A program made the position numbers and the translations under genes. The notes under the pieces are model-generated. The model was given only the letters and a program-made list of their open reading frames with translations, was not told the DNA's origin and did not search any database. 64,000 bases of DNA from Candidatus Dormiibacterota bacterium (GTDB taxonomy: Bacteria; Chloroflexota; Dormibacteria; Aeolococcales; Aeolococcaceae), in assembly GCA_963768105.1 (NCBI GenBank), contig CAVYGR010000001.1, forward strand, positions 35,453-99,452, read 5' to 3'. Positions 15,318 to 46,143 of the stretch are shown one piece after another (the first letter of the stretch is position 1; each line of letters starts with the position of its first letter).

Positions 15318-16256
15318 TCAGCGTTTGGCGAGGCCGCTGCGCAGGCGTCGTTGCAGGCGCCACGCGCCGCTCGCGATCGGGAATCCCGGCAGTGCCCTGA
15401 GATGCGCCATCTGACGCTCGGCCTCGCCACGCCACACCGCGCGCGTGGCCAGCGCCTCCCACGCAAGACGCAAGCGGTGCGCCGCCACGACCGGATCGCC
15501 GTTCTCAACGGCGCGGCGGAGCGCGAAACCGAACTCGAATCCGTCGGTGACGTCCTCGACGAACATGGCGTCGAGGAGTTCCCAGCGCATGCCCATCGCG
15601 GCGACGGTGTGCACCAGCACCGGAAGGAACTCGTCCTCCGTCCAGCAGTGCACGTGAATCGACCGCTCGCGGTTGAACGCGAACTCCCTGCGACGGTCCT
15701 CCTCGGTCCATGACTCCTGCCAGACGCCGGTCTTGCGCAGGTGATCTTCCATGTGATCGTCGCTCACGACCGTCACACGGTCTCGATGGTCCGCGATCAG
15801 ATGCTCGAGTGGGGTCGGCGACCGCTTGCGATCGAACGTGTAGCGCCGGTCGGGAAGGAAGATCAGGGCGACGCCGCCTCGCTTCAGCACCCGGTGCATG
15901 TCGTCGAGTTGCGTCAGTGGATCCGCCAGATGCTCGAGCAGGTGGCTGGCGACCACGAAGTCCTGACTCTCGTCGGCCAGGGCCGAGAGTCGCTCGACGT
16001 CGAGGTTTGCGATGACGTCGGGTTTGGTGAAGGTCGACCCGGCCGCGACGTCGGGGAACAGCGCGCGATTCTGCTCCGGCTCCCATCGATCCACGTATCG
16101 AACCGTCACGTCCGGGTTCATCATCGGCATGGGGTGGTGTCCTGGGCCGAGCTCCACGCCGGAGCCGCTGAGAAATCGGGTGAGCAAGCCCCGGGCTGCG
16201 GACGGACGGGCGTGATCCGCAGGGTCGTTCACGGCGCCGAGACTAGCATCCGACAC
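15318..16256 (-). CDS. Class I SAM-dependent methyltransferase with an extra C-terminal domain
   Basis: GVELGPG and FVVASHLLEHLADPLTQLDDMHRVLKRGGVALIFLPD match the Methyltransf_11/23 pattern. The C-terminal extension is about 120 aa. Confidence 0.75.
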   Translation of the reverse strand: MSDASLGAVNDPADHARPSAARGLLTRFLSGSGVELGPGHHPMPMMNPDVTVRYVDRWEPEQNRALFPDVAAGSTFTKPDVIANLDVERLSALADESQDFVVASHLLEHLADPLTQLDDMHRVLKRGGVALIFLPDRRYTFDRKRSPTPLEHLIADHRDRVTVVSDDHMEDHLRKTGVWQESWTEEDRRREFAFNRERSIHVHCWTEDEFLPVLVHTVAAMGMRWELLDAMFVEDVTDGFEFGFALRRAVENGDPVVAAHRLRLAWEALATRAVWRGEAERQMAHLRALPGFPIASGAWRLQRRLRSGLAKR

Positions 16257-16269
16257 GGCGGCGCACTGA

Positions 16270-18429
16270 CTACGCGATCACCGCGAACGCCGCGGACACG
16301 TTGCCTTGCCACGGGGCGGAGGTGATAAGTCGAAGATTCGGCAGGCGGGCGATGCAGTTGAGGTCCCACGGATATTCGGGTGCGTCGATGCGGTGCGCGC
16401 CGATGAAGACGACGCTGGCGTCGTAGAGGGTGCGCATACGGCTGATCGTGGCCGCCGCGAAGGCGGGGTTGCTGCACGCATCCGTGAGTGCGACGCCGAG
16501 CGGCACGCTGAGGTTCAGGAATTCGTAGCCGTTGGGGACCAGCGGTGTCAGGTCGGTGAGCCCGGCAAGCCACATGCCCGCGTCATCGCCGCCGTCGGTC
16601 ATCACCACGGTTCCCTGCGGCAGGGTGGTGGTTAGAGTCTTGAGCGTGGTCAGATCCGCCGGCGTGACCATCGAGCGCGCGGCGACCTCGTTGTTGTACA
16701 CGCTGAGCTCCGATGCGGCCCCGATGACAACGCACATGACTGCGATGATGCCCAACGACGCGCCGGCGATACCGAGCCCAGGCGGGACTTTTCCGAGGCG
16801 TTCGGTCACGAACCCGGGCAGATCCATCCGGCGCGCGAGCGCGACCCACGCGATGACGACGGCGATCGCCGCAATGGCCATCGCGGCGATCCATGGGCGC
16901 AGCTGGCCGAGGGGATCGAAGATGCCGAGCGGATAGGTGTAGACCGTGTGTGAGGCCCACACGCTCGTCCAGAGGTGACCGATGGGATGCCGTGCGATGA
17001 AGGCCACCGCGGCAACACCGACGGCGGCGATGGTGGCGATGAGCTGGCGCCGGCGCGTGCGCGAGAGTGCGCGCAGGAGGTCCGCCACGGCGAAGAGTTC
17101 CACCGCCAGGACCAGCGGGATCAGGAAGTACTGCACTCCGAGCATGCGGTCGATGTCGCCCCAGGGATAGACGATCCGCCAGAGGAAATTGAGCTTGTGC
17201 GAGTAGAAGTTGTCGGCCATCAAGAGCACGAGGACGGCCTCCGCACCCAGTATCCAGAGCATCCGCCGGCGGAGGAGCAGCGCGATCACGCCAACACCGA
17301 ACAGGGCAAGGGTGACCGGGCTGATGAGGTCGGTCTGGGCGATCGACGCCAGGATCTGATGCAGTCGTATCGGTGCGCTGACGTTCGGGAAGACGACCGG
17401 CGACGCGTCGGACGCCACCGGCGTCGGCAAGTGGGGTGTTCGGGTCAACACGGTCGCAAGCGCCGCACCCCCCAGGGTCGCGACGACCGCGATGGCGCTG
17501 CGAACGATGCCGGCAGCCGGTGCCTCGCGTATGGCCCTGACACCCGCCGCCGCGAGCAGGAAGAATCCGACGACCAGCGCGGTCAAGAGCTCGAGACCGT
17601 GGATGACCCAGATCGACATGGTGATCGCCACCAGCAGCAGCGCGTTGTCGCGCGTGCCTTGCCCGCGGATGACCCGGAGCGCCGCCACCAGGAAGGGCAC
17701 GATGAGTGTCGAATCGATGACCTCCGGGAACCGTCCGATGATCACCTGATCGGAGGGAAAGGCAAGTCCCAGTGCAAAGAAGGGGACCACCGCGGTGAGC
17801 GCCACCGAGCCGGTAACCTCGTATGTGAGCAGGGTCAGCGAGAGGGGAACCAAGACCAGCGTCACCGTTATTACCGGGGCCATGGAGGCCACAGGTGAGG
17901 GGCCTCCGAGCCAGGACACGACGGCGGCCGTCGCCTCGAAACCCGACCGAGCGCGCACATAGGCCGAGCCCTCGAGCGGGATGCGGACCAGTGGCAGCAC
18001 ATCGTGCGTCCGCGCGATGTCGTTGGCGATGCTGCCGTGGGCTGCGCTGTCCCAGTCGGGCGGCAGAACCTGGCCGTGCAACGCCCACACGAAGAGTCCG
18101 GCCCCGATCAGGCCCGCGACCAGCGCTGGAATGGGGAGCCACCACGGCGCATTGGTCTGCGCTGTGGGTTCAGTGCGCCGCCAGCGGAATATCGACGCGA
18201 CCACCAGGACCGCGATCAGCGGCAGCACCGTGAGTGGCTCGAAGGGGATGTGGACGTCGTGCATGCCGAGCCCGATAACCCCGATGAACCCGGCGGACAG
18301 GCCCGGGGCCATCGCGAGCCGCTGCCACCACCGCCATCGCGGGACGAGCAGGGTCGCGAGCGCGAAGCCGGGGAGCAGTGCCGCGATCACCACGCCGGGA
18401 AGGGATTGCGCGAGGTCCTGCAGTGGCAA
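16270..18429 (-). CDS. Large polytopic membrane protein (719 aa), GT-C-like glycosyltransferase or polymerase candidate
   Basis: The intact ORF has more than 12 hydrophobic helices followed by a soluble C-terminal domain of about 150 aa. It sits between the initiating transferase and a methyltransferase. Confidence 0.55.
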   Translation of the reverse strand: MPLQDLAQSLPGVVIAALLPGFALATLLVPRWRWWQRLAMAPGLSAGFIGVIGLGMHDVHIPFEPLTVLPLIAVLVVASIFRWRRTEPTAQTNAPWWLPIPALVAGLIGAGLFVWALHGQVLPPDWDSAAHGSIANDIARTHDVLPLVRIPLEGSAYVRARSGFEATAAVVSWLGGPSPVASMAPVITVTLVLVPLSLTLLTYEVTGSVALTAVVPFFALGLAFPSDQVIIGRFPEVIDSTLIVPFLVAALRVIRGQGTRDNALLLVAITMSIWVIHGLELLTALVVGFFLLAAAGVRAIREAPAAGIVRSAIAVVATLGGAALATVLTRTPHLPTPVASDASPVVFPNVSAPIRLHQILASIAQTDLISPVTLALFGVGVIALLLRRRMLWILGAEAVLVLLMADNFYSHKLNFLWRIVYPWGDIDRMLGVQYFLIPLVLAVELFAVADLLRALSRTRRRQLIATIAAVGVAAVAFIARHPIGHLWTSVWASHTVYTYPLGIFDPLGQLRPWIAAMAIAAIAVVIAWVALARRMDLPGFVTERLGKVPPGLGIAGASLGIIAVMCVVIGAASELSVYNNEVAARSMVTPADLTTLKTLTTTLPQGTVVMTDGGDDAGMWLAGLTDLTPLVPNGYEFLNLSVPLGVALTDACSNPAFAAATISRMRTLYDASVVFIGAHRIDAPEYPWDLNCIARLPNLRLITSAPWQGNVSAAFAVIA

Positions 18430-18441: not shown

Positions 18442-19818
18442 TCAGCGGCCCTTGAGCGTGGCGATCGCGAACACGGTCCGCGCGATGATCAACAGGTCGA
18501 GCGCCACCGACTGATGCTTGATGTAGTAGAGGTCGTATGACAGCTTGACCGTGGATCCCTCGATGCTGCCTCCGTATCCGAAGTTGACCTGCGCCCACCC
18601 GGTGAGACCGGGTCGCACCGAGAGGCGGGTGTTGTAGTACGGGATGCTCGCGCGTAATTCCTCGACGTAGTGCGGCTGCTCGGGGCGGGGGCCGACCACG
18701 CTCATCTCGCCGCGCAGGATATTCCACGCCTGGGAAAGCTCATCGAGGTGCAGCCGGCGCAGCACCGCGCCAACCCTTGTGATGCGTGCGTCGTCCTCAT
18801 CCGTCCAGTGCGACACTGGCTCTGGATGCGCGCGCATGGTGCGCAGCTTCACGATCTGGAAGGGGCGGCCGAAGTGGCCGACGCGCGGCTGCCGGTGGAA
18901 GACCGGACCGTGATCTTCGAGCATGATCGCGATCCACACGAAGGGAAGCAGAATCGCGAGCAAGACCAGCCCGACGAGGCCCGCGATGATATCGACGAGG
19001 CGCTTGAAGAATGCGTAGAGGCGCGACGTCTCGCCGCGCTGCTGCAGCGAGAGCAGCCACGTCTGCCGCAATCGCTCGACCAGCAGGCGGCCGGTCAGCT
19101 CCTCGTACACGTCCGCGATGGATCGGACCACCATCCCCTGGTCGTAGCAGTCGACGAGGCTCTGAAAGAGTTCGGACGGCAGCTCCTCGTCGGCGCCAAG
19201 CACGATCTGGTCCGCTTCGCGCCCGGTCGCGGCGGCGCTGAGCCGGGTGCTCGCGTCCGCATCCCCCGGGTGAATCGTGCCCACGATGCGGTACAGGCCC
19301 GCCATGTGCTCGTCGACCTCCGACCACACCCGATCGAGCAACTCCGCGTCGGCGACCAGCATCATCCGGCCGGCGAAGATCGCCCGGGCGAACACCCTGC
19401 GATAGAGCAGGCGCCAGCACAGGACGGTGATCGCCGCGACCGGGACCCAGATCAGGATCGTCGATCGCGTGACGCCGTAGGGGATCAGGAAGAAGACGCC
19501 GAGTAGAGCAATCGTCTCAAGCGCCGCCGTGGTGGCGACAACCCGAAAGATCCCACGGACGTTCACCGCCTCGCGAAGGTTGTAGGCATCGACCATCAGC
19601 GCAACCGCGAGCCAGATTGCCGTGACCAGCGCCACGCCGGTCCAGGGAACGGTCAGTGCCTTGTGCTGAATGGCCGCGGAACGGAGATTGAAGGCGAGGA
19701 TGAGTGCGGCAGCCACAAGAATGGCGTCGCCGCCCGCCAGAAGTAACTTTCGCTCCGAGGCGAGGATCCCTCGGCGGCGGGTGTCCACCGTGGCGCCCGG
19801 AACTTCCTGGGCGATCAT
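18442..19818 (-). CDS. Polyprenyl glycosylphosphotransferase (WbaP/exopolysaccharide initiating sugar transferase)
   Basis: FFKRLVDIIAGLV...PVFHRQPRVG..GRPFQIVKLRTM...DELSQAWNILRGEMSVVGPRP...RPGLTGWAQV is present. The start was chosen at ATG 19818 so the gene does not overlap the divergent GT2. Confidence 0.9.
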   Translation of the reverse strand: MIAQEVPGATVDTRRRGILASERKLLLAGGDAILVAAALILAFNLRSAAIQHKALTVPWTGVALVTAIWLAVALMVDAYNLREAVNVRGIFRVVATTAALETIALLGVFFLIPYGVTRSTILIWVPVAAITVLCWRLLYRRVFARAIFAGRMMLVADAELLDRVWSEVDEHMAGLYRIVGTIHPGDADASTRLSAAATGREADQIVLGADEELPSELFQSLVDCYDQGMVVRSIADVYEELTGRLLVERLRQTWLLSLQQRGETSRLYAFFKRLVDIIAGLVGLVLLAILLPFVWIAIMLEDHGPVFHRQPRVGHFGRPFQIVKLRTMRAHPEPVSHWTDEDDARITRVGAVLRRLHLDELSQAWNILRGEMSVVGPRPEQPHYVEELRASIPYYNTRLSVRPGLTGWAQVNFGYGGSIEGSTVKLSYDLYYIKHQSVALDLLIIARTVFAIATLKGR

Positions 19819-19879: not shown

Positions 19880-20969
19880 ATGACAAAGACGAGGACACGC
19901 CCCATGGCATCCGGGACGGACCACGCGTCCACCGCCCGAACCCCGTTCGTCAGTGTGGTGATTCCCGTCTTCAACGAGGAGCGCTACATCCAAGCCTGCC
20001 TGGAACTCGGTCCTTGCGCAGGATTACCCGGCCGATCGATTCGAGGTGATTGTCGCCGACGGCGGCTCGACCGATCGCACCCGTGCGATTGTCGAGGGAA
20101 TAGCCGCGCTGCACCCCAATCTGCGGATCATCGACAACCCGAGACGGCTCCAGGCGGCAGGTCTCAACGCGGCCATTCTCGCCAGCACCGGCGACGTCAT
20201 CGCACGCCAGGATGGGCACGCCGAGTGGGCGCCGAACCATCTGCGACGGTCGGTCGACGTGTTGTTCGCCACCGCCGCAGACAACGTCGGAGGGCGTCAG
20301 GATGCCGTGGGCGACGGTGACTCGGGTCGCGCCATCGCCCGTGCGATGCGCTCGCCGTTCGGCGTCGGGGGCGCGCGATTTCGCTACTCGAACCGCCAGG
20401 AGGAAATGCCGACAGTGTTCCTCGGGACGTTCCCGCGGCGCGCGTTCGAGCGAGTCGGTCTCTTCGACGAGGCATATCCGCCACACGAGGACTACGAGCT
20501 CAACACCCGGATCCGGTCGACCGGCGGCCGCATCGTGTACAGCCCCGAGATCCGAACTCGATATCACGTCCGCGACGGGCTCATGGCTCTCGCGCGGCAG
20601 TACTACCGGTACGGGAGAGGAAAGGTCCGCGTTGCGCGGAAGAGCCCCGAGGTCCTCCAGCCCTATCACCTCGCGGCCCCGGCGCTGGTTGCGGCCCTCC
20701 CGACGATGGCCGTGCTGGTGGCGACTGGCCGATGGAGGCGCGTCGCCATCAGCGTTGCCGGGTTGTACGCCGGCGCGTGCCTGATCGCTGCACAGCAGGC
20801 CGGCAGTGGCGAGACGGTGCGGGTGCGGCTGCGCATTCCCGCAGCCTTCGCGGTCATGCATATTGCGTGGGGGGTCGGCTTCTGGGCCGGGATCTGGGAG
20901 GCGGTGCGCGGTACTCACGTCGGCGGAGGCTCGCCGCCGCTTCTCCCCGGCGCGTCTGATGCCGCGTAG
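19880..20969 (+). pseudogene. Family 2 glycosyltransferase, +1 frameshift at 20003-20008 (probably a sequence error)
   Basis: VSVVIPVFNEERYIQACLE (frame of ORF 19670..20320) continues as SVLAQDYPADRFEVIVADGGSTDRT (frame of ORF 20046..20969). The break sits on GAACTC. Confidence 0.8.
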
Positions 20970-21021: not shown

Positions 21022-22398
21022 GTGGTGACCGGCCGCCCGAATCCACTCTGCATGGTGGGGGCGGGCTACGTCGGCCTCGTCACCGCGGTCTGCCTGGCGG
21101 ACGCCGGCGTTGACGTTCGGCTCCTCGATATCGATGCCGCGCGCCTCGCGATGCTCCGCCAGGGCAGGACCCCCATCCACGAGCCGCTGCTCGACGACCT
21201 GCTGGCGTCGGTGCTCGCCAACGGCCGGCTGACACTGTGCGACGACGCGGCGGTGGCGATGCACGGTGCCGAGGCGATCATGCTCGCGGTGGGCACGCCG
21301 CCCCTTGCCGATGGCCGGGCCGACCTGACCCAGGTCCGGGCGGCACTGCGTGAGGCGGTGCGTCACGCCGGACGGGACACGGTGATCGTGATCAAGAGCA
21401 CGGTCCCGCCCGGGACCACCGAATCGCTGCGCTCGCTCTGCCGGCGCAACGGACGCCAGGTGCCGTTGACCGTCTGCCCCGAGTTCCTCGCCGAGGGGAG
21501 CGCGGTCCGCGACTTCCGCCAGCCACCGCAGGTTGTGATCGGCGGGGAGGACGGCGAGGCCTGCGCCCGCGTGGCCCGGCTGTTCGGTCATCTCGACGCT
21601 CCCATCCGCATCACCGATTCCACCAGCGCGGAGCTCATCAAGTACGGGGTCAACGCGTTTCTTGCCCTGAAGATCTCCTTCATCAACGAGATGGCGCAGC
21701 TCTGCGAATTCACGGGCGCCGACGTGAGCTCGGTCGCCGACGGCATCGGCACGGACGAGCGCATCGGCAGGGCGTTCCTCGGAGCCGGGCTTGGCTTCGG
21801 TGGCTCGTGCTTCCCCAAGGATGTGCGCGCGCTCGACCAGGCGGCGAGCTATCACGGCCAGAGTTTTCAGTTGCTGCGCGCGGCAGTGGAAGTCAACCAG
21901 CAGGCGCGCAGCCGCTTCGTCGCCAAGATCCAGCGGGCCCTCAATGGCAAGCTTGCCAAGCGACGCATCGCCGTGCTCGGGCTCGCGTTCAAGCCGGGGA
22001 CCGACGACGTCCGGCAGGCAGCGTCGATCGACGTCATCCGCCATCTCGAGGACCTGGGTGCGGTGGTGGTCGCGACCGACCCCGTGGCGATGGCCAACGC
22101 CGAGCCGCTGCTCCCGAACACCGAGCTCGTCGCCGACCCGTACGCATGCGTCAAGTCGGCCGACGCGGTCGTCGTGGTGACCGAGTGGCCGGAGTACGTG
22201 GACCTCGACTGGTCCCGTGTCGCCACTGTGGTGCGGCGCCCGATCATCGTCGATGGGCGCAACTGCCTCGCCCCGGATCCCCTGGTCGATCTCGGCTTCA
22301 CGTACATCGCGGTTGGCCGCCCCGTCCGCAAGCCGAAGACTGTCAAGCCGGCGCAACCCGGTATCAGGCAGGTTCCCGATCTGATCGCGGTGCGATGA
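21022..22398 (+). CDS. ugd: UDP-glucose 6-dehydrogenase
   Basis: [19 protein letters not shown] and [10 protein letters not shown] are present. The GTG 21022 start is inferred; listed ORF 20806..22398 over-extends. Confidence 0.9.
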
Positions 22399-23369
22399 GC
22401 TGGGCTCCGGCGCGCGTGGTTGTCACCGGCGGCGCGGGATTCCTCGGATCTCACTTGGTCGACAGGTTGCTCGCCGATGGTGCCGAGGTGATCGCCATCG
22501 ACAATCTGATCACCGGGAGCCCCCGGAACGTGGGCCATCTCGCCGATGATCCTCGCTTCTCGCTGCGCACCGAGGACGTGACGCGCCCCTGGGACGTTGA
22601 TGGAAGGGTGAACGCCGTTCTGCACTTCGCGTCACTCGCCTCACCGGTTGACTACGAACGCCATCCGATCGAGACGCTCGAGGTCGGGACGCTGGGCACC
22701 ATGAACGCCCTCCGCGTCGCCGAGGAGAAGGGCGCACGTTTTCTCTTCGCGTCGACGAGCGAGGTGTACGGCGACCCGTCGGTGCACCCGCAACCGGAGA
22801 CGTACTGGGGCAACGTGAATCCGATCGGCCCGCGAAGTTGCTACGACGAATCGAAGCGCGTCTCCGAGGCGTTCACGATGGCGTTCGCGAAGGCACGACA
22901 CGTCGACGTCCGGATCGCGCGGATCTTCAACACGTTCGGGCCCCGGATGCGTGCAGAGGATGGGCGAGCAGTTCCGCAATTCGTTACGCAGGCGCTGGCA
23001 GGCGAGCCGATCACCGTGTACGGAGACGGATCACAGACACGCAGCCTCTGCTACGTCGACGACCTCATCGAAGGCTTGATGCGCCTGCTCCGGTCCGACT
23101 ACAGGCTGCCGGTGAACCTCGGCAATCCCCACGAGCTGAGCATGTTGCAGCTTGCGGAGATGATTCGCGACCTCTGCGCCAGCGCCTCTGCCATCGAGAT
23201 GCGTCCGCTGCCGGTGGACGACCCCAAGCGGCGGTGCCCGGACGTGACGGTCGCGGAGCGCGAGCTGCAGTGGAAGGCAACGGTGCCGCTGGCCGACGCG
23301 CTGCGCGCCACCATCGAGTGGTGGCGGCTCGCGTCGCGACCCGAGGCGTCGGCCGACATCGCCAGGTAG
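22395..23369 (+). CDS. uxs: UDP-glucuronate decarboxylase (UDP-xylose synthase)
   Basis: There is an ATGA overlap with ugd. [18 protein letters not shown] and [36 protein letters not shown] are present. Confidence 0.9.
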
Positions 23370-23390: not shown

Positions 23391-24089
23391 CTAGCGCACT
23401 CGACGGAGCCAGCCCTTGGGGCTGTGGCTGACGAGGTATCGACGGGACCGCTCCTCGTCAACGACGAAACGATCGTCTCGGGCAACAAAGCGTTCGACCG
23501 CGCGTAAAGGCCCAGGTCGCGCGTGCCTGAACATGGCGAGCTCGTCGGTGCACCCATCCTGAACGTGCATATACTCGCCGACCTTCAGGAACTCGGCATA
23601 GAGACGCATCTCGCGTTCGACGTGCGCTTGAGAGTGGTCGCTGTCCAACACCACGAGCACATGTTTCGGCTGCGCATGGACCACGCGGTCGCGCACCGTG
23701 CTCACGATCGTGGGATCCGTGGAGCTCCCGATCAGAAACTCGATCCGTGGGTGCTCGAAATCGGCAAGCTTCTCGACGTCGATGGTGAGCACGCTTCCAC
23801 GACCCAGCAGGTCAAATATCGAAGCCATGTAGAACGCTGAGCCACCCCGGTTGGTGCCGCACTCGATGACGAAGTCAACCTCGTCATGAACGATCGCTTC
23901 CTGGATCAACCAGGCGTCGGTGACGTTTTGCCAGATGGGTCTCCCGAGCCATGTGACGCGATCGAAGTTGGAAGTACGCCTGATCAGGGCGGTGAGGGCG
24001 GCCCTCCGAATGACTGTGTCCTCCATCCAGGAACGCATGCCTCTGGCCGGGCCCGCCTGTGTGATTCGCGTGAGGATGCTCATCGGCAA
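23391..24089 (-). CDS. CmcI-family (cephalosporin hydroxylase-like) SAM-dependent O-methyltransferase
   Basis: RPIWQNVTDAWLIQEAIVHDEVDFVIECGTNRGGSAFYMA matches the CmcI/rhamnosyl O-methyltransferase pattern. Confidence 0.75.
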   Translation of the reverse strand: MPMSILTRITQAGPARGMRSWMEDTVIRRAALTALIRRTSNFDRVTWLGRPIWQNVTDAWLIQEAIVHDEVDFVIECGTNRGGSAFYMASIFDLLGRGSVLTIDVEKLADFEHPRIEFLIGSSTDPTIVSTVRDRVVHAQPKHVLVVLDSDHSQAHVEREMRLYAEFLKVGEYMHVQDGCTDELAMFRHARPGPLRAVERFVARDDRFVVDEERSRRYLVSHSPKGWLRRVR

Positions 24090-24104: not shown

Positions 24105-24758
24105 TCACACCGCGTCCTTGCCGTGTGGCTTCCTGGCGATGGTGATTGTGTCAAAGGCAATCGGTAGAGGCCAACCGACAATCGCCTTCGCACGGTTGAG
24201 CATGCGACCGCGCGGTCCACGCCCAGCGTTGTACGACTTCCCGGGAAACCACGACAGCGGACGTTCCTCCAGGCTGTCCCAGCGTGTCAGCTCGACATCG
24301 AGGCCCGCCTCCTCGCACAGCGCGCGCATGCCGTCGGGGTAGATCCGCCAGCAGTCAATCGGCGCCTCGTGGTAGGGCCAGCTCACCGGGTTGACGGTGA
24401 CCACGGCGCCGCCGGGTGCGCATACGCGGGCCAGCTCCCGCATCCAGATCCATGGTTTCCGAACATGCTCGATCACCTGGCCAGAAACAACGATTTCGAA
24501 TGCCGAGTTGGGTGCGGGGATGTCGTACTCGGAGCGCATCGGAAACGTCACATCTGTCCCCGCCCCGATTCCCCAGAGGCGCTCGCCCCCGGCGTCCACC
24601 TGCGACGCGAGATCGGCTGTGGACCAGATGACCGGCGCGGTGATCTGCCGGCGATATGTCGAAGGGTTGCCGTCTGGGCCCACTTCGAGCACACGGGTTC
24701 CGGCGATGAAGAGTGGCAGGGCGTACTTGCGAAAGAGGAGCACGCTGTTCGGGTGCAT
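24105..24758 (-). CDS. Class I SAM-dependent methyltransferase
   Basis: VLEVGPDG and FEIVVSGQVIEHVRKPWIWMRELARVCAPGGAVVTV are present. Confidence 0.7.
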   Translation of the reverse strand: MHPNSVLLFRKYALPLFIAGTRVLEVGPDGNPSTYRRQITAPVIWSTADLASQVDAGGERLWGIGAGTDVTFPMRSEYDIPAPNSAFEIVVSGQVIEHVRKPWIWMRELARVCAPGGAVVTVNPVSWPYHEAPIDCWRIYPDGMRALCEEAGLDVELTRWDSLEERPLSWFPGKSYNAGRGPRGRMLNRAKAIVGWPLPIAFDTITIARKPHGKDAV

Positions 24759-35853: not shown

Positions 35854-35863
35854 CCGAGCTCCG

Positions 35864-37378: not shown

Positions 37379-38358
37379 CAGCGCCGCCGGCGAGCGGCGT
37401 CTCCCAACCTGACGGCGAGCGATGGCGACGCAAGCAGCAAGGTGGCTTCCAGGGCCATCCGAGGCGGCCCGGTCAGGCATCTGGCGGCGGCCATCCGGGC
37501 CCTCCAGCCGCCCCCGTCTCGAGCGGCGGCATAGGCGATCGCCAGCGCCCGCCGGCCCTTCATCCAGCTCAGACCGGCGAGAGCAGCCGCCCGCTGAGCG
37601 TCATCGCCGGCTTCGGCGACGGCCCGCTCAAGGACCCGAACGTAGGTGTCGAAGATGACGGCGCGGTGGCTGAGCCCCGCGGAATCGACCCGATACAGCA
37701 CGGTGGGGGCAGGTATCCCGTGGACCCGGAGACCGTTCCTGATCATCCGGATCCACAGGTCCCAATCCTCCGCGCCGGAGACCCCATCGCGGAAACCACC
37801 GGCCTCGTCGTAGGCCCGGCGGGGGAAGAGGGCCCCGATCGATACGAAGTTGTGGCGGAGGATGCCGAGCACCTGGCGGTCAGCGGGGGGAATCGGGAAA
37901 TGGTCCCGATGGGTCGCGGCGTGCACCCCCCTGCCGGGACGCCAGCGCATCACGTCGGCACACACGATCCCGCCACAGCGCTCGTGCAGGCGGGCCGCCG
38001 ATTCGAGGTGGTCGGGGAGCCAGACGTCGTCGGCGTCGAGGAGCGCGATCAGGGGGGCGTCGATAGCGGCTATGGCCGCTCGGCGCGCGGCGGCCGGGCC
38101 CGAATTCCGCTCCAATCGCACCACCTCGAGTGGTAGGAGGCCCTGCCAGCGGCGCGCCAGCTCGGGGGTGTCATCGCCCGAGTGGTCGTCGCCGACGACC
38201 ACCGCCGACGCAGCGTGCGTCTGGGCGGCGATCGACGCGAGCGCCGCATCCAGTGTATGCGCCGAGTTGTACGCGGGGATGACCACGGCGATCGAGCTCG
38301 CAGCGCCTCGCGGGGCGGCGCCAGCGGCGGCCGGCGGCCCCTGCGGCTCCGTCGTCAT
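37375..38358 (-). CDS. Family 2 glycosyltransferase
   Basis: IAVVIPAYNSAHTLDAALASIAAQT...VVGDDHSGDDT...LLDADDVWLPDHL is present. Confidence 0.85.
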   Translation of the reverse strand: MTTEPQGPPAAAGAAPRGAASSIAVVIPAYNSAHTLDAALASIAAQTHAASAVVVGDDHSGDDTPELARRWQGLLPLEVVRLERNSGPAAARRAAIAAIDAPLIALLDADDVWLPDHLESAARLHERCGGIVCADVMRWRPGRGVHAATHRDHFPIPPADRQVLGILRHNFVSIGALFPRRAYDEAGGFRDGVSGAEDWDLWIRMIRNGLRVHGIPAPTVLYRVDSAGLSHRAVIFDTYVRVLERAVAEAGDDAQRAAALAGLSWMKGRRALAIAYAAARDGGGWRARMAAARCLTGPPRMALEATLLLASPSLAVRLGDAARRRRW

Positions 38359-38423: not shown

Positions 38424-39503
38424 GTGAGCGCCCACGTATACGGCAACACGGAATTCCAGATCGGCGATCGGCGGGTTGGCCCGGGGAACCCGTGCTACGT
38501 GATCGCGGAGGCGGGATCCAACCACAACCGCGATCTCGGCATGGCGCTGCGTCTCATCGAGGTCGCCGCCGAGGCCGGCGCCGACGCGGTCAAGTTCCAG
38601 ACCTACACGGCCGAAGGTCTCTATTCGCGACGGACACCGGACATGAGCTATCTCAAGGAGCAGGGCCTCGTCGGCGATCGTGAGTCGGTGTGGGAGCTCA
38701 TCAAGCGCGTGGAGATCCCGTGGGAATGGCACGCCGATCTGGCTCGCCACGCGGCGAACGTGGGCATCACATTCTTCTCGACGCCGTTTGAGGAGGCCGC
38801 CGTCGATCTGCTGGAAACGCTCGACGTTCCCGCCTACAAGATCGCGTCGTATGAGGTGAATCACCTGCCGCTCATTGAGCGCGCGGCCCGTACCGGCAAG
38901 CCCCTGCTGATCTCCACCGGCATGGCCGCGCTGGGCGATATCGAACGGGCGCTCGACACCGCTGCCGCTGCCGGGGCGCATGACCTGTTGGTGATGCACT
39001 GCGCGGTCAACTACCCCCCGCGCTTCGAGGATCTCAATCTCCGCGCCATCACGACGCTCCGGGATGCGTTCCAGGTTCCCATCGGGTGGTCGGATCACAC
39101 CCCGGGGCACACCGCCGATGTCGTCGCGGTGGTGCTGGGCGCGTGCGCCATCGAGAAGCACTTCACGGTGAGCCGCAACCAGGAGGGACCCGACCATCCC
39201 TTCGCGCTGGAACCGGATGAGCTCAAGGCCATGGTCCGGGCCATTCGCGAGACCGAAGCGTCGCTGGGATCGAGCGTCAAGCGTGTCACGGAGTCGGAGG
39301 CCGAGATGTACCGGCTCGGACGTCGCAGCATCGTGGCGGCGCGGGACGTCGCCGCAGGTCACACGATCACGCGAGACGACATCGCCATCAAGCGTCCGGG
39401 GTTCGGCATTCCGGTGCACGACCTGGACCGTGTCATAGGAAGTCACGCGGTCCGGGCGCTGGAGTCCGACGAAGTCCTGCAATGGGATGACCTCGTGCGG
39501 TGA
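38424..39503 (+). CDS. pseI: Pseudaminic acid synthase (NeuB family nonulosonate synthase)
   Basis: NPCYVIAEAGSNHNRDLGMALRLIEVAAEAGADAVKFQTY is followed by a C-terminal SAF/antifreeze-like domain. The pse gene context supports the call. Confidence 0.82.
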   Translation: MSAHVYGNTEFQIGDRRVGPGNPCYVIAEAGSNHNRDLGMALRLIEVAAEAGADAVKFQTYTAEGLYSRRTPDMSYLKEQGLVGDRESVWELIKRVEIPWEWHADLARHAANVGITFFSTPFEEAAVDLLETLDVPAYKIASYEVNHLPLIERAARTGKPLLISTGMAALGDIERALDTAAAAGAHDLLVMHCAVNYPPRFEDLNLRAITTLRDAFQVPIGWSDHTPGHTADVVAVVLGACAIEKHFTVSRNQEGPDHPFALEPDELKAMVRAIRETEASLGSSVKRVTESEAEMYRLGRRSIVAARDVAAGHTITRDDIAIKRPGFGIPVHDLDRVIGSHAVRALESDEVLQWDDLVR

Positions 39504-39979
39504 CGACCGGCAGGTCAGACCACCGCGTGACCCTGCGCCGGGCACGTGAGGATGACGCCCCCCTGCTCCGCGAGTGGCGCAACGAGGCGGACGCGGTTCG
39601 ATTCAGCGCGACCGCTCGACCTGTGTCTGGAGCGGCGCACGCGCGGTGGTTGGCCGCGCGCCTGGCCGATGCCGGGACGCGCCTCTGGGTCGGCGAGGAG
39701 GCAGGGGTCCCCGTGGGGCAGGTGCGCGTCGATCTGCTTGACGGCTCCGGCGTGGTGTCGATCGCTGTTGCAACCGCGGCACGGGGACGGGGTATTGGAC
39801 AGGCGATGCTGCGCGCCGCGATCGAGGAGATTGCTCAGGAGGACGCTGCGACCCAGCTGAGGGCCTTGATTCACCCCGATAACACCGCGTCGCTGCGAGC
39901 ATTCGAACGAGTTGGATTTCGCCGTGTGTCGTCGGACGAGCACGGATTCGTGGTCCTGGAACGGGCCGCCTCCGGCTGA
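39500..39979 (+). CDS. pseH: GNAT N-acetyltransferase, PseH-like
   Basis: The start overlaps the pseI stop. LRRAREDDAPLLREWRNE and AVATAARGRGIGQAML form the acetyl-CoA motif. Confidence 0.65.
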   Translation: MTTGRSDHRVTLRRAREDDAPLLREWRNEADAVRFSATARPVSGAAHARWLAARLADAGTRLWVGEEAGVPVGQVRVDLLDGSGVVSIAVATAARGRGIGQAMLRAAIEEIAQEDAATQLRALIHPDNTASLRAFERVGFRRVSSDEHGFVVLERAASG

Positions 39980-39992: not shown

Positions 39993-40774
39993 TTACCCCG
40001 TCTTGTGTTGCCCGTGCGCAGCCGCGCGCTGAGCCAGGTAGCGCTCGTTCCTCGCAGGCAGGTGCCGTTGATCCCAGAGCTCGGTATGGCTCTCGAAATA
40101 TGCGACCACAGCGCCCAGGTTCGGCGGCGGTGACGCAGGCAGCGCGGAGAGGATGGTGCGTACCCGGTCGAGGTCGGCGGGGACGTCGACGGTGAGACGA
40201 ATCCATGTCAGGTCACGGTCGTTGCGCAGCTGCGCGGTTCGGTACTCGTCAGGGTGCTCCCGGATGCGCGGGGTGACGTGCTCGCGTTCGTAGCCGAGGG
40301 TTGATTCGACGTCGACCCGCCTCAGACATTCGGCGGTGAGCACCTCGGCGTCGTATCCCTCCGGGAAGCTCGGCTCCAGGACATTGCTCGCGTACTCGGC
40401 GTCCGCGTCGGCGCGGACGCGTACCAGCCTGTCGACGAGTTCCGGGTCGACCAGGGGGCAGTCGGCGGTGATCCTGACCACGACGCCGGCGCCGTGCTGC
40501 TCGGCGGCGAGCACGTACCGGCCCAGCACGTCCAAAAGCGATCCGCGGGTCACGCCGGCGCCGCGTTCGGCTGCGAGCTCGGCGACGGCGTCGTCCTCGG
40601 GCCCATCGGTGGTGGCGACCACCACCCGGTCAAGAGTTCTCGGCAAGCCGGAGTCGCTCGATGATGTGGGCCAGCATCGGCTTGCCGCCGAGGTCGGCGA
40701 GCACCTTGCCGGGAAACCGAGTTCGAGCTCATCCGTGCCTGGACCACCGCGACGGTCTTGAGCGCGTGCTTCAT
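39993..40774 (-). pseudogene. pseF: Nonulosonate (pseudaminic acid) cytidylyltransferase, SpsF/PseF-like, with two +1 frameshifts (40719-40724, 40634-40639)
   Basis: Three frames join as MKHALKTVAVVQARMSS / TRFPGKVLADLGGKPMLAHIIERLRLAE / LDRVVVATTDGPEDD...ITADCPLVDP. Both breaks sit on plus-strand GAGTTC. Confidence 0.72.
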
Positions 40775-41755
40775 GCGGTCCCGACCTGGGCGAGACGGTG
40801 CACCGCCTGCGCCACCCGCGCCGCGCCGTGCCCATCGACCAGCGCGCGGCCACGCGCGGCCATGTCATCGCAAAGCGGCACGTCGTCGAGCAGCCTCAGA
40901 CACTGCGACGCGATGTCCGAGCCGTCTGTCACGACGGCGCACCCGGCGGACGCGAGCGCTGCGGCCTGAGCGGCCTGATTCGAGATCGCGGCGGTGATGA
41001 CCGCGGGAATCCCAACGCAGGCCGCCTGCACCGCCGTCGTACCTGCCGCCCCCGCATACACCGTCGCGCCAACCATGACCTCTGCCAGGTTGGGTGGCGC
41101 GATGAGCACGCGTTCACGCGGACGAGGCGGTCGATCGCGGGCCGATGTATCGGGTCCTACCACCACCACGACCTCGATGGTCCTGTCGGTCCGCCGCAGA
41201 TCTGCGCTGACCGAGTTCGGCGAGACCGCCCATGTCGGTCCATCCGGTCGAGACCAGCACCGTTCGCGCGGGGCGCCCGCGGCGCATCACCTCCTCGCGC
41301 GCGCCGGCGAACGCGTCGCGCAGCAAGGCAAAGGTCGCGCCGCCGAGAAACGCGTCGGCGCCCGCGGGACGCATGGCCTCACCTCCGGGCGACGGGTTGA
41401 CGGCGAGGTCGCAGTCTGCCGGCAGGCCGAGGTCGTCGACAACGGTCAGCGGCGCGCGCAGGCGGAGCCGGTGCTGCAGTGCGGGGTCGAAGGCATATCC
41501 GTCGAGGACGATGACGGTCGGCGGCTGCACCTGCGCCACGACGGATTCGACCCGGTGGGCGGCGTCACCCGTCGCTTCCAGCGCGTTGTGGCCGCGGTCG
41601 GAGACCCGGCCGCGCAGCACCCCATCTCCTGCGGGCACCAACACCGAGACCGCAAGGTGCGGGACCAGTGCGTCCGCGAGGGCGAGCAACCGCTCGACGT
41701 GACCGAGGCCCACGCCCTGACCGCAGTCGGGGACAAGCAGCGCTTGGGGAGTCAC
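40771..41755 (-). pseudogene. pseG: UDP-2,4-diacetamido-2,4,6-trideoxy-beta-L-altropyranose hydrolase PseG-like, +1 frameshift at 41213-41218
   Basis: GQGVGLGHVERLLALADAL...VLVSTGWTDMGGLAE (ORF 41114..41779) continues as SVSADLRRTDRTIEVVVVVGP...GAAGTTAVQAACVGIPAVI (ORF 40771..41169). GTGA and ATGA overlaps link it to pseC and pseF. Confidence 0.72.
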
Positions 41756-42947
41756 GCTGCGCCCGCGTGCGCCGCCCATGCCTGTATCCGACGCAGCGCG
41801 GTGATGACGTCATCCTGGTCCGAGGTGGTCATTGTCGAGTACAGCGGCAACGTCACCAGCCGCTTGCACAGGGCTTCGGCGCGCGGGATAGTACCAGGAA
41901 CACCTCCTCGAGCCCGATAGAACGAGAGCAGATGGAGGGCCGGGTAGTGGAGGGTCGCCTCGATGCCCTCTGCACGGAGGGCGTCGATCACCATGTCTCG
42001 CTCGCACCCGAACGTGCCCGGATCGATCTCGATGGGATAGATGTGCCACGCGTTGCGCCGTCCGGCGGGACGAGGTGGCACACCTATCCCGGGAATGTCC
42101 TGCAACAGCGCGTCGTACCGGTCCGCGATCTCGCTCCGCTCGGCGACGACCTCGTCGAGCCGGCGCAGCTGCGACCTGCCGAGCGCAGCCTGAAAGGCCG
42201 TCATCCGATGGTTGTCGCCCAGCATGGTGACGTCGTATTTCCAGAGCGCGCCCGTGCGCTCATCGGCGGTGCTGGTCATGCCGTGGTTGCGCAGGCTGCG
42301 AATGCGGGCGGCGAGCTCGCCGTCGTCGGTGAGGCACGCACCCCCTTCACCGGTGGTCATCTGCTTCACGGGATGAAAGCTCAGAGTCGTGATGTCAGCG
42401 AGCGAGCCGACCGGCCGCCCGTGCAGCGACCCGCCGAGCGAATGCGCGCTGTCGGCGATCACGGGAAGCGCTCTGGGCAGCGCGGCCCTGAGCGCAGGGA
42501 TGTCGGAGGGGAGGCCCGAGTAGTCGACCGTGATCACCGCCTTGGTGCGCGGGGTGACCGCGAGCGCGACGGACGCAGGGTCGAGGCACCGATCGTCGCC
42601 GACATCCGCGAACACCGGAGTCGCGCCGGCCCGCACCACGGCATTCGCAGTCGCGACGAAGGTCAGTGGCGTGGTGATCACTTCATCTCCGGGACCGATG
42701 CGCAGCGCCAGCACCGCCAGGTCGAGCGCGGCGCTTCCGTTGGCGACTACCGCTGCGTGCTCCACCTTGCAGCGGGCCGCCAGCGCGTGCTCGAAGTCCG
42801 CGATCTCCGCCCCCCCTGTGAGGGTACCCGAGCGCAGCGACGCGATCACGGCGTCGACGTCGCTCTCCTCGAGGTGGTGACGACCGTAGGGCAGCGGACG
42901 GAATCGCACCGGCGTGCCCCCGGCGATCGCCGGCGGATCGACCGGTT

Positions 42948-42951
<4 letters not shown>
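41752..42951 (-). CDS. pseC: UDP-4-amino-4,6-dideoxy-N-acetyl-beta-L-altrosamine transaminase (DegT/DnrJ/EryC1 family)
   Basis: ATG 42951 lies inside listed ORF 41752..43371. ITTPLTFVATANAV, DSAHSLG and SFHPVKQMTTGEGG (PLP Lys) are present, and the 399 aa are intact. Confidence 0.88.
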
Positions 42952-43988
<1,037 letters not shown>

Positions 43989-44033: not shown

Positions 44034-44267
44034 ATGGTATCAAGGCGGTATCATCGCGCCGTGGCACTGACCGTCCGCACCGACGCTGAGATGGAGCGAG
44101 CGCTCACCGCCCTCACGGAGGCGGAAGGTGCATCCCGTCAGGAGATCATTCGCCGGGCGGTGCTGGAGCGATACGAGCGCGCCGCCCACGTCGCCCACGT
44201 GGACGGCGTCGCCGCGCATTTGGCTGATCGGTGGGAGGACGTCCTTGGGCGTCTCGGTGACACGTGA
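44034..44267 (+). CDS. Ribbon-helix-helix antitoxin (Phd/CopG-like)
   Basis: ATG 44034 lies inside ORF 43977..44267. VALTVRTDAEMERALTALTEAEGASRQEIIRRAVLERY is an RHH fold signature. The stop overlaps the doc start as GTGA. Confidence 0.7.
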   Translation: MVSRRYHRAVALTVRTDAEMERALTALTEAEGASRQEIIRRAVLERYERAAHVAHVDGVAAHLADRWEDVLGRLGDT

Positions 44268-44626
44268 GCGGCGTCGAGTACCTCGATATCGAAGACGCAC
44301 TTCGTCTCGTGCGACGCCTCGGCGTGGGGCCGGTACGCGACCTCGGTCTGCTCGATTCCGCGCTGGCGCGGCCGAGGTCCGTATTCTTCGGCGACGATGC
44401 GTACCCGACGATGCGAAAGAAGGCTGCGGCGCTGCTCCATTCGATAGCCGGCAACCACGCGTTGGTCGACGGCAATCGACGTCTGGGGTGGTTGGCCACC
44501 GTGGTATTTCTCGATCTCAACGGATGCGAGGTGGATGTGGACGACAACGCAGCATTTGACCTGGTCACTGCTGCCGCGGCTGGAGCGATGGACATCGAAC
44601 AGATATCCCAACGCCTGGACGCATGA
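44264..44626 (+). CDS. doc: Doc (death-on-curing) Fic-fold toxin
   Basis: The protein is 120 aa and carries the Doc motif HALVDGNRRLG. Confidence 0.85.
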   Translation: MSGVEYLDIEDALRLVRRLGVGPVRDLGLLDSALARPRSVFFGDDAYPTMRKKAAALLHSIAGNHALVDGNRRLGWLATVVFLDLNGCEVDVDDNAAFDLVTAAAAGAMDIEQISQRLDA

Positions 44627-46143
44627 ACCTCCGCAGCCACGACGCGACCCTGGAGCTGCCGGTGGAGCACTCTGAGGGTTCGGCGTTCGACCGCGTAGCG
44701 GCGGTTGGCATGGCAGCCGAATGGGCACTCGTTGCCGTTCTGGTCGTAACGGTTTCCCTGTATGCCTATCTGGGACGATACGCCCGATATGTAGCTGACG
44801 ACTACACGCTGAGCAACGGTCTGCACGCGCGCGGCTACTGGACTTCAGAGATCTGGGAGTATCTGCACTGGACAGGTCGCTTCGCTTACATAGCGGCGGT
44901 GGACGCCGGGCTGCTGCTGAATGATCTCTTCGTTCGGCTACTGCCCGGGCTCATGGTCGTCGTATGGGTCGTGGCAATCGCTACGGCTGTCAAGTTCATC
45001 GTTCCCACGGTCGGTCGGGTAGCGCGCCTGGGTCTGGCCTCGGGCATTGTCTTCAGCACACTGCACGTCACGCCAAGTCCATTCCTGTCCCTGTACTGGA
45101 TGGCAGGATCCCTCGAGTACACGGCGCCGTTACTCCTCGGAACCGTCCTTGGCGCACTGCTGGCATCCCGGCGCGAGGCCGGTCGTCTGCGAATCGGTGC
45201 CGCCGGCCTGGTCGCGTTCGTGGCGGGGGGATTCAACGAGGCATATGCGTTCTGCCAGCTGGTCGGACTGGTGTTCCTCCTGCTGACCTTGGCGGTCGTG
45301 GCGCGGCCTGACCTGCGGCGATTGCGACCCCTGTTGGTTTCCAGCTTTGTGGGCGCGGTCGTCTCTCTCGCCGTTCTCGCGGCCGCGCCCGGGAACGGCG
45401 CTCGCTTCGCTGTCATCACAGCGATCATCGGCACGCGCCCCTCCTTCATCGAATTGCCCGGAGTCACCATTGGCTTCGCCGGGCAGTTCTTCAACGAGGT
45501 CTTCGTCGCGCATTGGACCGCTCTTCTGGCCATGGGCGGCCTGGCTGCACTCATTGCGGCGCGGACGCCCCCGCTCTCCCGGACGAGTCCGAGCCGGGGA
45601 CCGCTGATCGTGCTGTTCGTCATCGTCGCCGCCATGGTGGCGATCGTCGGATCGTTCGCCCCAACAGCCTATGTCGAAGGTCTCATCGCACCCATCTACG
45701 GTCAAATCCTCCCTGTATTCATTGGTATCTGCACCGTCACGGTCATCGGTTGGGCGTGCGGTCGCTACGCGCAATCGTTGTTAGCGCGCGCCGGTGCAGC
45801 GTCGAGGATGAGCCCTGGGCGGCGTTCGTTGGCGGCCGCGGCCGCTACGGTGGCGCTCTCCTGTCTGGTAGCGGTGATCCCGATCCACAACGCGATCGGC
45901 ATCTGGGAGGACCGTGGTGCAATCAACGCGTACGCTGCGACGAAGGACGCTCAGGCCGCCTTGGCGCGAGCAGCCGCAGCCGCGGGCAAGCCGTCGGTGA
46001 TCGTGCCGTCGACGAGCGTGATAGCCAACCTCGGCGTTTTCAGCCACCCGAGCTACGAAGAAATGCTCGCCGACCCGAAATGGTGGATCAACGCGGGTGA
46101 GGCAAGCTATTACGGTGTTGGCTCCATCCGCGCGTCCGGGTGA
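44623..46143 (+). CDS. Polytopic membrane protein (about 480-506 aa), GT-C/polymerase-like candidate
   Basis: The protein has many TM helices. There is an ATGA overlap with the doc stop, with an alternative start at ATG 44710 (MAAEWALV). To the eye, third codon positions are richer in A/T than in neighbouring genes. Confidence 0.55.
   Translation: MNLRSHDATLELPVEHSEGSAFDRVAAVGMAAEWALVAVLVVTVSLYAYLGRYARYVADDYTLSNGLHARGYWTSEIWEYLHWTGRFAYIAAVDAGLLLNDLFVRLLPGLMVVVWVVAIATAVKFIVPTVGRVARLGLASGIVFSTLHVTPSPFLSLYWMAGSLEYTAPLLLGTVLGALLASRREAGRLRIGAAGLVAFVAGGFNEAYAFCQLVGLVFLLLTLAVVARPDLRRLRPLLVSSFVGAVVSLAVLAAAPGNGARFAVITAIIGTRPSFIELPGVTIGFAGQFFNEVFVAHWTALLAMGGLAALIAARTPPLSRTSPSRGPLIVLFVIVAAMVAIVGSFAPTAYVEGLIAPIYGQILPVFIGICTVTVIGWACGRYAQSLLARAGAASRMSPGRRSLAAAAATVALSCLVAVIPIHNAIGIWEDRGAINAYAATKDAQAALARAAAAAGKPSVIVPSTSVIANLGVFSHPSYEEMLADPKWWINAGEASYYGVGSIRASG

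Follow-up and report, generated by a model that had tools for sequence, protein, structure and literature searches.

A conserved Dormibacterota gene island for a probable O-methylated surface heteroglycan containing pseudaminic acid

Gene content of the island

A stretch of 64,000 nucleotides from a Candidatus Dormibacterota genome (assembly GCA_963768105.1, contig CAVYGR010000001.1, positions 35,453 to 99,452; hereafter the window) was analysed with regard to an island of glycan genes spanning 15318–46143, which is predicted to direct the synthesis of a surface heteroglycan containing pseudaminic acid (Pse). Genes in this high-GC window (61–74%) were called by third-position GC bias and scanned against Pfam and NCBIfam. 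PDB searches were performed for selected proteins, and proteins that matched no family were rescanned permissively against Pfam at E 0.5. The island is bordered on the left by clpP, a helix-turn-helix (HTH) gene and MOSC, and on the right by a glyoxalase gene, a tRNA-Ala(CGC) gene (46654–46728, roughly 0.5 kb past the right end) and ccsA. The G+C content dips to 61–65% in parts of the island compared to roughly 70% in the flanks. Contigs of relatives used for comparison are designated by L and a number.

The initiating enzyme is a polyprenyl-phosphate hexose-1-phosphate transferase of 458 amino acids (aa) at 18442–19818 on the minus strand. It scored 199 bits against Bac_transf and 333 against TIGR03025 (EPS_sugtrans, cut-off 295.6), as expected of an initiating phosphoglycosyltransferase (PGT) of Wzx/Wzy pathways, and is roughly 80% identical across many Dormibacterota. 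An earlier reading of the window, made from sequence only, had placed such an enzyme here and called it WbaP-type. The initiating phosphotransferase is indeed present, but its score against the WbaP model was 155 with a cut-off of 403, and judged from its sequence it is of the exopolysaccharide (EPS)/WcaJ type and not WbaP proper. UDP-glucuronate and UDP-xylose are accounted for by two plus-strand genes, the stop of the first overlapping the start of the second. Ugd, a UDP-glucose 6-dehydrogenase of 457 aa (21025–22398), has three UDPG_MGDP_dh domains and scored 418 against TIGR03026 (cut-off 190), while Uxs, a UDP-glucuronate decarboxylase/UDP-xylose synthase of 324 aa (22395–23369), had human UXS1 (4gll/2b69) as its best PDB match at 348 bits and E 5e-103, the next short-chain dehydrogenase/reductase (SDR) being at 144 bits. 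Uxs is thus closest to characterised UDP-glucuronate decarboxylases and adjoins ugd; it also carries the sequences STSEVYGDP and YDESKR, which we take to be the UXS1 catalytic motifs.

All six genes of the CMP-Pse pathway were found. PseI, the Pse synthase (359 aa, 38424–39503, plus strand), has NeuB and SAF domains and scored 345.4 against TIGR03586 (cut-off 340.25), compared to 375.9 against the NeuB model, which is below the cut-off of that model (399.65). It is followed by a PseH-like GNAT N-acetyltransferase (39500–39979, plus strand; Acetyltransf_3) with TIGR03585 as its best match at 42.8 bits (cut-off 93.1). The remaining four genes are on the minus strand. The PseF-like CMP-sugar cytidylyltransferase (39993–40774; CTP_transf_3) is spread across three frames by +1 frameshifts at around 40634 and 40719, both at GAACTC. 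Its intact orthologue in L010 (259 aa) scored 31 against the PseF equivalog model TIGR03584 (cut-off 205.7) and 79.5 against KdsB-type models, and the protein appears to be a cytidylyltransferase of the right superfamily rather than the equivalog. The PseG-like UDP-sugar hydrolase (40771–41779) has one +1 frameshift at around 41213 (GAACTC). Orthologues in L004 and L010 are intact at 335–336 aa, and the only NCBIfam match of the L010 orthologue was the PseG model TIGR03590, at 107 bits with a cut-off of 153.6. A plus-strand open reading frame (ORF) of 308 aa at 40994–41920 was rejected as pseG, since its translation is arginine-rich and junk-like, matches no family and lies antisense to the minus-strand pseG. 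PseC, the aminotransferase (41752–42990), is intact, aligned to its L010 counterpart as a single gap-free high-scoring segment pair, and scored 368 bits against DegT_DnrJ_EryC1 and 370.8 against its best match TIGR03588 (cut-off 423.5). PseB, the inverting UDP-GlcNAc 4,6-dehydratase (42951–43960), carries many indels. Its fragments matched TIGR03589 at 95 and 109 bits, while the intact L010 orthologue, to which the window gene is 87% identical after frame correction, scored 474.8 against this model (cut-off 407.75) and just 58 against the LegB model. Six pse genes had been claimed before; all six are present, but the frames of pseB, pseG and pseF are broken in the sequence as given.

Upstream of these genes, at 25690–27474 on the plus strand, lies a protein of 594 aa that we consider the best candidate for the Pse transferase of the locus. 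Its AlphaFold model (pLDDT 88.8, pTM 0.90) returned GT-B enzymes exclusively in Foldseek (MurG, BshA, WecB and plant UDP-glycosyltransferases), at 9–15% identity. A word-indexed search found 83 unnamed clusters of homologues, and a hidden Markov model scan of 1.84 billion representatives, being clusters at 50% identity, gave 914 matches, 535 of these at E <= 1e-10. Pfam coverage of the homologues consisted of nothing beyond sub-threshold GT-B domains, and a PDB sequence search with the profile gave no meaningful match. Exact look-ups of this protein and of the window's PseI retrieved no record of either. Invariant positions of the 594-aa protein are Q356-H357-G358-D359, W476-K477 and S524/T525/E529. 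In all five contexts of distant homologues that were examined, the gene was located in, or abutting, a cluster of NeuB, DegT, PseB-like and CTP_transf_3 genes. It is because of the predicted GT-B fold and this constant neighbourhood of nonulosonic-acid genes that the protein is proposed to transfer a nonulosonic acid, probably Pse from CMP-Pse. TIGR04331, the model of the LIC12162-family transferases, weakly matched 3 of 37 relatives (best E 4.5e-5), and PF27859 matched one first-tier and one second-tier relative; the window protein itself did not match TIGR04331 at E up to 1. Described earlier as an orphan, the protein is where it was said to be, but its fold and tight linkage to nonulosonic-acid genes speak against it being functionless.

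Four of the same five contexts (L006, L008, L017 and L018) also contain a flippase-type protein beside the distant homologue or in its cluster; homology to a 504-aa protein of the island was checked for two of these. The proteins from L008 and L017 are 42% and 40% identical, respectively, to this minus-strand protein with roughly 12–14 transmembrane (TM) helices at 35864–37378, and the L017 counterpart matches Polysacc_synt and Polysacc_synt_3. This protein is thereby a candidate Wzx/MOP-type flippase. It had been named Wzx outright, which is borne out by its relatives and not by any Pfam match of its own, none being found even at E 0.5; a PDB sequence search likewise gave nothing meaningful.

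Four glycosyltransferases of the GT2 and GT4 type were recovered by family searches in agreement with the earlier count, as were ugd and uxs. GT2_a (about 19880–20969, plus strand; Glycos_transf_2) has a +1 frameshift at around 20004 (GAACTC) that leaves its N-terminus in a different frame, the orthologue in L014 being intact at 354 aa. GT4_a (27991–29292, minus strand) matched Glycos_transf_1 at 149 bits together with Glyco_transf_4. GT4_b (about 29453–30659, plus strand; Glycos_transf_1) is interrupted by a +1 frameshift at around 29639 (GAGTTC), with an intact orthologue of 401 aa in L010, and GT2_c (327 aa, 37375–38358, minus strand) scored 96.9 bits against Glycos_transf_2.

A set of minus-strand genes resembles a lipid-carrier decoration module. 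It comprises a GalE-like extended SDR of 322 aa, predicted to be a nucleotide-sugar 4-epimerase (31541–32509; Epimerase 132 bits, best PDB matches the UDP-glucose 4-epimerases 4zrm and 7ys8), an ArnC/GtrB/PgfS-like polyprenyl-phosphate sugar synthase, GT2_b, with two C-terminal TM helices (32619–33572; Glycos_transf_2), and a membrane protein of 746–758 aa with a C-terminal extracytoplasmic domain (33577–35817). The best NCBIfam matches of GT2_b were ArnC at 181 bits and PgfS at 140 bits, both under their cut-offs. For the membrane protein no Pfam match was obtained even at E 0.5 and nothing meaningful in a PDB sequence search; it has at least 184 clusters of homologues, none annotated. Its AlphaFold model, built with 25 homologues (pLDDT 79.3, pTM 0.86), had only DPY19, STT3, AftA and PMT as top Foldseek matches, and all eight matches with E up to roughly 2e-3 were GT-C enzymes (DPY19, STT3, AftA; TM score up to 0.52), in line with a GT-C-fold glycosyltransferase. 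Two more polytopic proteins are candidates for related functions. The first, a DUF6541 protein of 719 aa and roughly 15 TM helices (16270–18429, minus strand; PF20176 95.9 bits), may be a GT-C-like transferase or a polymerase and is also of 719 aa in L014. The second is a candidate GtrC-type membrane glycosyltransferase of 506 aa (44623–46143, plus strand) that scored 74 bits against PF19528 (above 27), formerly DUF6056 and now GT_STM0557_N, a name that the family bears where the L010 orthologue has been annotated in advance. The epimerase, the GtrB-like/GT-C pair and the two further GT-C-like giants of the sequence-only reading were all found. No small GtrA-type flippase was identified in the island, small ORFs not having been searched for GtrA.

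Six methyltransferases were counted, one fewer than previously claimed; the frameshift in MT_c probably accounts for the difference, the second piece of this gene having been taken for a seventh. On the minus strand are MT_a, a class I S-adenosylmethionine (SAM) methyltransferase of 312 aa with an apparently intact frame (15318–16256; Methyltransf_11/23), a CmcI/rhamnosyl-O-methyltransferase-type enzyme of 232 aa (23391–24089; PF04989 156.7 bits, NF045824 105 bits and under its cut-off), and three further class I enzymes. These are MT_b (217 aa, 24105–24758; Methyltransf_11/23, 87% identical to its L010 orthologue), MT_c (24789–25626; Methyltransf_11 on the C-terminal half), which is spread over two frames by a +1 frameshift at around 25325 (GAGTTC) and is intact at 278 aa in L010, and the divergent MT_d (175 aa, 27467–27994), which has a DLGCG motif, matched Methyltransf_11 at only E 0.0048 and is 90% identical to its L010 orthologue. 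MT_e (274 aa, 30698–31522; Methyltransf_23 79.8 bits) is on the plus strand. MT_a is a variable edge gene: compared with the close relative L014, it lies on an insertion of 976 bp (15287–16262), and in L014 the DUF6541 gene directly adjoins MOSC.

The genes for PseB and the GtrC-type protein are separated by a Phd/Doc type II toxin-antitoxin pair (44034–44626, plus strand), which consists of a ribbon-helix-helix (RHH; Phd/CopG-type) antitoxin (44034–44264; RHH_1 28.7 bits), the stop of which overlaps the start of a Fic/Doc toxin (44261–44626; PF02661 49.7 bits). The pair is kept at the same spot in L010–L012, whereas L013 lacks it and has a response regulator ahead of pseB.

Outside the island, a minus-strand gene for a GT87-family, PimE-like membrane glycosyltransferase was observed 2.7 kb downstream (48894–50141). 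Upstream, near maf and rplU, a DUF11/CARDB-repeat protein is encoded at 3609–4661; it is probably a surface protein and could be a candidate glycoprotein.

Conservation of the island in relatives

When species-representative genomes were scanned with the GT-C protein, only metagenome-assembled genomes (MAGs) of Candidatus Dormibacterota were returned. For this protein, the initiating transferase and the 594-aa protein alike, named relatives were almost all from Dormibacterota/Dormibacteria. The actinobacterial frame in which the island had first been placed was consequently abandoned. Between ugd/uxs at about 21.9 kb and pseB at about 44 kb, the genes follow the same order in at least 8 contigs of relatives, at 58–96% amino-acid identity. 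L001, L002, L003 and L004 are collinear over roughly 21.9–43.9 kb at 58–85% identity, L010–L013 are exactly collinear over roughly 23.5–46 kb at 78–96% identity with every gene intact, and L014 covers the left arm and flank (7.5–23.4 kb) at roughly 89–90% nucleotide identity. A synteny break between 31.5 and 38.4 kb would have contradicted the earlier claim of one contiguous island; none was observed in these contigs, at least 8 in number, and the block is therefore one conserved Dormibacterota locus.

Gene content varies around this conserved order. L004 and L001 hold extra genes between the conserved ones; in L004 (8257–10085) an aldo/keto reductase and a short-chain dehydrogenase, both lacking in the window, separate the flippase candidate from the GT-C gene. 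Extra Aminotran_3, GFO_IDH_MocA, GNAT or methyltransferase genes that the window does not have were observed in the nonulosonic-acid arms of L001 (2901–5959), L013 (4448–5833), L006, L008 and L018, which suggests that lineages differ in the N-acyl or other modification of their nonulosonic acids. One MAG, MFD09286.bin.3.221, holds two copies of the island, L005 (contig_18977) and L002 (contig_76463). The L005 copy is fragmented, with split matches for many genes, and could be a degraded paralogous copy, a result of strain mixing in the bin or a case of heavier assembly error.

Alternatively, the block could consist of two or three independent systems placed side by side, each making or modifying a different product: an EPS-type locus (DUF6541, PGT, GT2, Ugd, Uxs), a locus for a Pse-containing glycan or for protein glycosylation that has a flippase and a transferase to itself, and a Gtr/Arn-like decoration module. 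In L016 the left arm of PGT, GT2 and Ugd/Uxs adjoins transketolase genes and is not followed by the methyltransferase/pse arm, which, together with the lack of MT_a in L014, indicates that the edges of the block are modular. Variability is likewise seen at the right edge, as both the toxin-antitoxin pair and the GtrC-type gene are missing in L013. Moreover, distant lineages combine the module of nonulosonic-acid genes, 594-aa homologue and flippase with other partners, and the island itself has several transcription units that diverge from one another and encodes three distinct GT-C-like proteins. We nevertheless regard such a juxtaposition as unlikely. The order from Uxs/Ugd to pseB is kept across the whole range of divergence given above, the 31 kb contain one phosphoglycosyltransferase and one flippase candidate only, which leaves the pse arm without an initiator of its own, and the clusters of L008 and L017 also hold Bac_transf, GT2/GT4 and methyltransferase genes, meaning that the mixed make-up is recurrent.

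Interrupted reading frames

Roughly 14 frame-breaking 1-base indels were found relative to intact orthologues, a feature of the island that had been overlooked. They affect pseB, which in three-frame translation is spread over three frames, with 10 unpaired indels versus L010, the closest relative, and 8 versus L004 in addition to one closely spaced compensating pair; pseF, with two; and pseG, GT4_b, MT_c and GT2_a, with one each. Taken at face value these genes are pseudogenes and the island is decaying, in which case the strain no longer makes a methylated, Pse-containing glycan. The frames are indeed broken as sequenced, ten unpaired indels in pseB alone are many, a toxin-antitoxin pair abuts pseB, and surface-glycan loci are often inactivated. 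The pattern of the indels and the substitutions around them, however, make decay quite unlikely.

Each of the six shifts that lie outside pseB is a +1 insertion and yields GAACTC or GAGTTC. Just 38 such hexamers occur in the 64-kb window, and their presence at all six shifts is therefore not a coincidence. At these six sites the short-read relatives have GA(N)TC-like 5-mers in four cases (GAGTC, GAATC, GAGAC and GAGCC) and unrelated bases in two. A comparable shift at the GT4_b site is present in the MFD MAGs L001 and L002, which have long-read-style 'contig_' names, and absent in the k141/JGI short-read assemblies L003 and L004. With indels removed, the ratio of nonsynonymous to synonymous substitution rates (dN/dS) versus the closest relative was 0.12 (0.116) for pseB, 0.24 for pseG, 0.24 for pseF, 0.11 for GT4_b and 0.12 for MT_c, similar to the 0.04–0.22 of intact glycan genes nearby. 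Under decay it is implausible that pseB would have gained ten independent indels with no excess of amino-acid changes, and pseC, which lies between broken genes, has no indel; consensus error therefore fits better. Neither large deletions nor premature stops derived from substitutions were observed. Nanopore assembly errors tied to methylation motifs, GANTC included, with only some occurrences of a motif being hit, have been described (PMC12392509). The indels are thus most likely long-read consensus or assembly errors, the recurrent +1 insertions possibly constituting a systematic error that is perhaps linked to GANTC methylation and the rest most likely clustering in a low-quality stretch over pseB. 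In the organism itself the Pse pathway is very likely to be intact.

Complete conversion of GACTC/GAGTC sites was considered and rejected, as 69 sites are kept and some GAACTC/GAGTTC hexamers are legitimate in-frame Glu-Phe codons in MT_a. For genome mining the recurrent insertions serve as a warning, in that they can mimic pseudogenes in apparent long-read MAGs. Elsewhere in the window, a single 641-aa ORF at 5636–7561 has a NadD-like cytidylyltransferase domain after its Obg domains and contains GAACTC/GAGTTC hexamers at 6335, 6542 and 7409; it could be a genuine fusion or have lost a stop through another indel. A suspected frameshift in oppD was dropped, its 411-aa ORF being intact at 52009–53244.

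Predicted pathway

Taken together, we consider it likely that the block is one conserved Candidatus Dormibacterota locus for a lipid-linked, Wzx-type surface heteroglycan of hexose, glucuronate/xylose and Pse that is heavily O-methylated, and that the frameshifts are most likely consensus errors. As predicted from sequence, family or fold, the EPS-type phosphoglycosyltransferase would begin the chain on polyprenyl phosphate, Ugd and Uxs would supply UDP-glucuronate and UDP-xylose, and CMP-Pse would be made by PseB, PseC, PseH, PseG, PseI and PseF. The chain would then be extended by the four GT2/GT4 enzymes using UDP-hexose, UDP-glucuronate and UDP-xylose. The 594-aa GT-B protein may cap or branch it with Pse from CMP-Pse, and up to six methyltransferases may O-methylate its sugars at the cytoplasmic face of the membrane, across which the 504-aa MOP-like protein would flip the finished unit. 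On the outside, a further sugar may be added from a polyprenyl-phosphate donor by the combined action of the GalE-like epimerase, the ArnC/GtrB-like GT2 and the GT-C-fold protein, while the DUF6541 and GtrC-type proteins may polymerise, transfer or decorate the glycan. Peptidoglycan, an S-layer or other protein, and lipid are possible final acceptors.

It is very improbable that the pse genes are instead used to glycosylate one particular protein, flagellin or pilin for example, as they are in Campylobacter, Helicobacter and Aeromonas. In favour of this reading, the best-known role of Pse is that of an O-glycan on flagellin, and L008 carries type IV pilin-like genes (N_methyl, prepilin peptidase) 0.3–2 kb from its nonulosonic-acid genes. 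Against it, the Pfam scans of the window returned neither a Maf (motility-associated factor) protein nor flagellar genes. The pse genes are also surrounded by a phosphoglycosyltransferase, glycosyltransferases and a flippase candidate, a setting that suggests a lipid-linked route; as in Tannerella, such a route could nevertheless end on protein.

Several observations weigh against a single lipid-linked Wzx-type pathway with an intact Pse branch. The scores of PseF, PseH, PseG and PseC are under the NCBIfam equivalog cut-offs, and the assignment of the 504-aa protein as a flippase is second-hand, through its relatives. No Wzy_C/O-antigen-ligase, Wzz, GNVR or LCP family was found among the window genes scanned; the DUF6541 or GT-C protein might substitute for Wzy. 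The left arm that stands alone in L016 and the absence of MT_a from L014 count here as well. With respect to the frameshifts, the pseB indels lie off the GAACTC motif in homopolymer or GC-rich contexts with no motif in common, the 69 GACTC/GAGTC sites that remain in the window (1.1/kb versus 1.3–2.1/kb in relatives) show that any motif-specific error is partial, and it is from contig naming that long-read sequencing is deduced for the window and for L001/L002. Finally, Dormibacterota are abundant in soil and permafrost, and we know of no cultured member, no glycan chemistry and nothing else reported on their envelope glycans.

A broader interpretation is offered tentatively, and we would put it at somewhat less than an even chance. 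The 594-aa proteins may form a large unmodelled GT-B family of CMP-nonulosonate (pseudaminic or legionaminic acid) transferases, corresponding to a new CAZy-type family, which together with the co-travelling MOP flippase would mark a portable module for nonulosonic-acid capping in uncultured soil bacteria. The island would then direct a phylum-typical, Pse-capped and poly-O-methylated envelope glycan that has no described monoderm counterpart. Enzymes that transfer pseudaminic acid are scarce, and this GT-B family, modelled with confidence and accompanied by nonulosonic-acid genes in each context examined, is a practical candidate for biochemistry and glyco-engineering. The locus, conserved across the class, likewise leads to a concrete and testable prediction, namely a Pse-containing, methylated xylose/glucuronate heteroglycan.

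Comparison with known systems

The combination of genes in the island had been implied to be unprecedented. That implication is contradicted by the 27-kb O-glycosylation cluster of Tannerella forsythia, which already joins wzx, pseBCFHGI, five glycosyltransferases (gtfSMILE), three methyltransferases (mtfJOY) and wecBC, and the product of which is a decasaccharide that bears a Pse derivative at its terminus and includes two 4-O-methyl sugars, xylose being among the sugars listed (PMC6120980). As in the island, a Wzx-like flippase, six CMP-Pse genes, roughly five glycosyltransferases and several SAM methyltransferases are found in one cluster. The core of the glycan also contains xylose and glucuronate, as reportedly described by Posch et al. 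in 2011. Tannerella forsythia further encodes a GT-B-type Pse transferase beside its pse genes and uses an undecaprenyl-linked intermediate (PMC6120980, PMC5420450). The two systems differ in that Tannerella forsythia is a diderm of the Bacteroidota while Dormibacterota are presumed to be monoderm, and in that Ugd, Uxs and the initiating transferase are encoded inside the locus in Dormibacterota. The island also has six methyltransferases compared to three, and three GT-C-like membrane proteins and an ArnC/GtrB-like GT2 without a Tannerella counterpart. Its candidate Pse transferase, at 594 aa, is not detectably TagB-like.

The CMP-Pse pathway of Campylobacter and Helicobacter is resembled in that the PseB orthologue and PseI pass the equivalog cut-offs and the best or only specific matches of PseC, PseG and PseH are Pse models. 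Differences are that the cytidylyltransferase is nearer to KdsB-type models than to the PseF of TIGR03584, that PseC, PseG and PseH fall under their cut-offs, and that the island has no flagellar context and no Maf transferase was found. The placement of GT2_b between the GalE-like epimerase and the GT-C-fold protein recalls ArnC/ArnT, GtrB/GtrC and the PgfS-PgfE-PgfM system of Streptococcus mutans, and a second GtrC-type protein (PF19528) closes the island; the GT-C protein, unlike those of the known systems, falls outside all Pfam families.

As for the 594-aa protein, proteins of similar size beside NeuB-type genes are known from the LIC12162 family (TIGR04331/PF27859), which occurs in Leptospira and other O-antigen or sialic-acid regions. 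The window protein misses the family model, so that any relationship is remote, and the family is itself uncharacterised as far as we could find. A Lic12162-family transferase beside neuABC has been mentioned (PMC6679464).

A literature search combining Dormibacterota and pseudaminic retrieved no linking paper, and the product of the island may still be called undescribed in the sense that none has been characterised for this lineage. What is new in the island is its occurrence in an uncultured phylum, its density of methyltransferases and GT-C proteins, and its two unmodelled families, the 594-aa GT-B protein and the GT-C protein.

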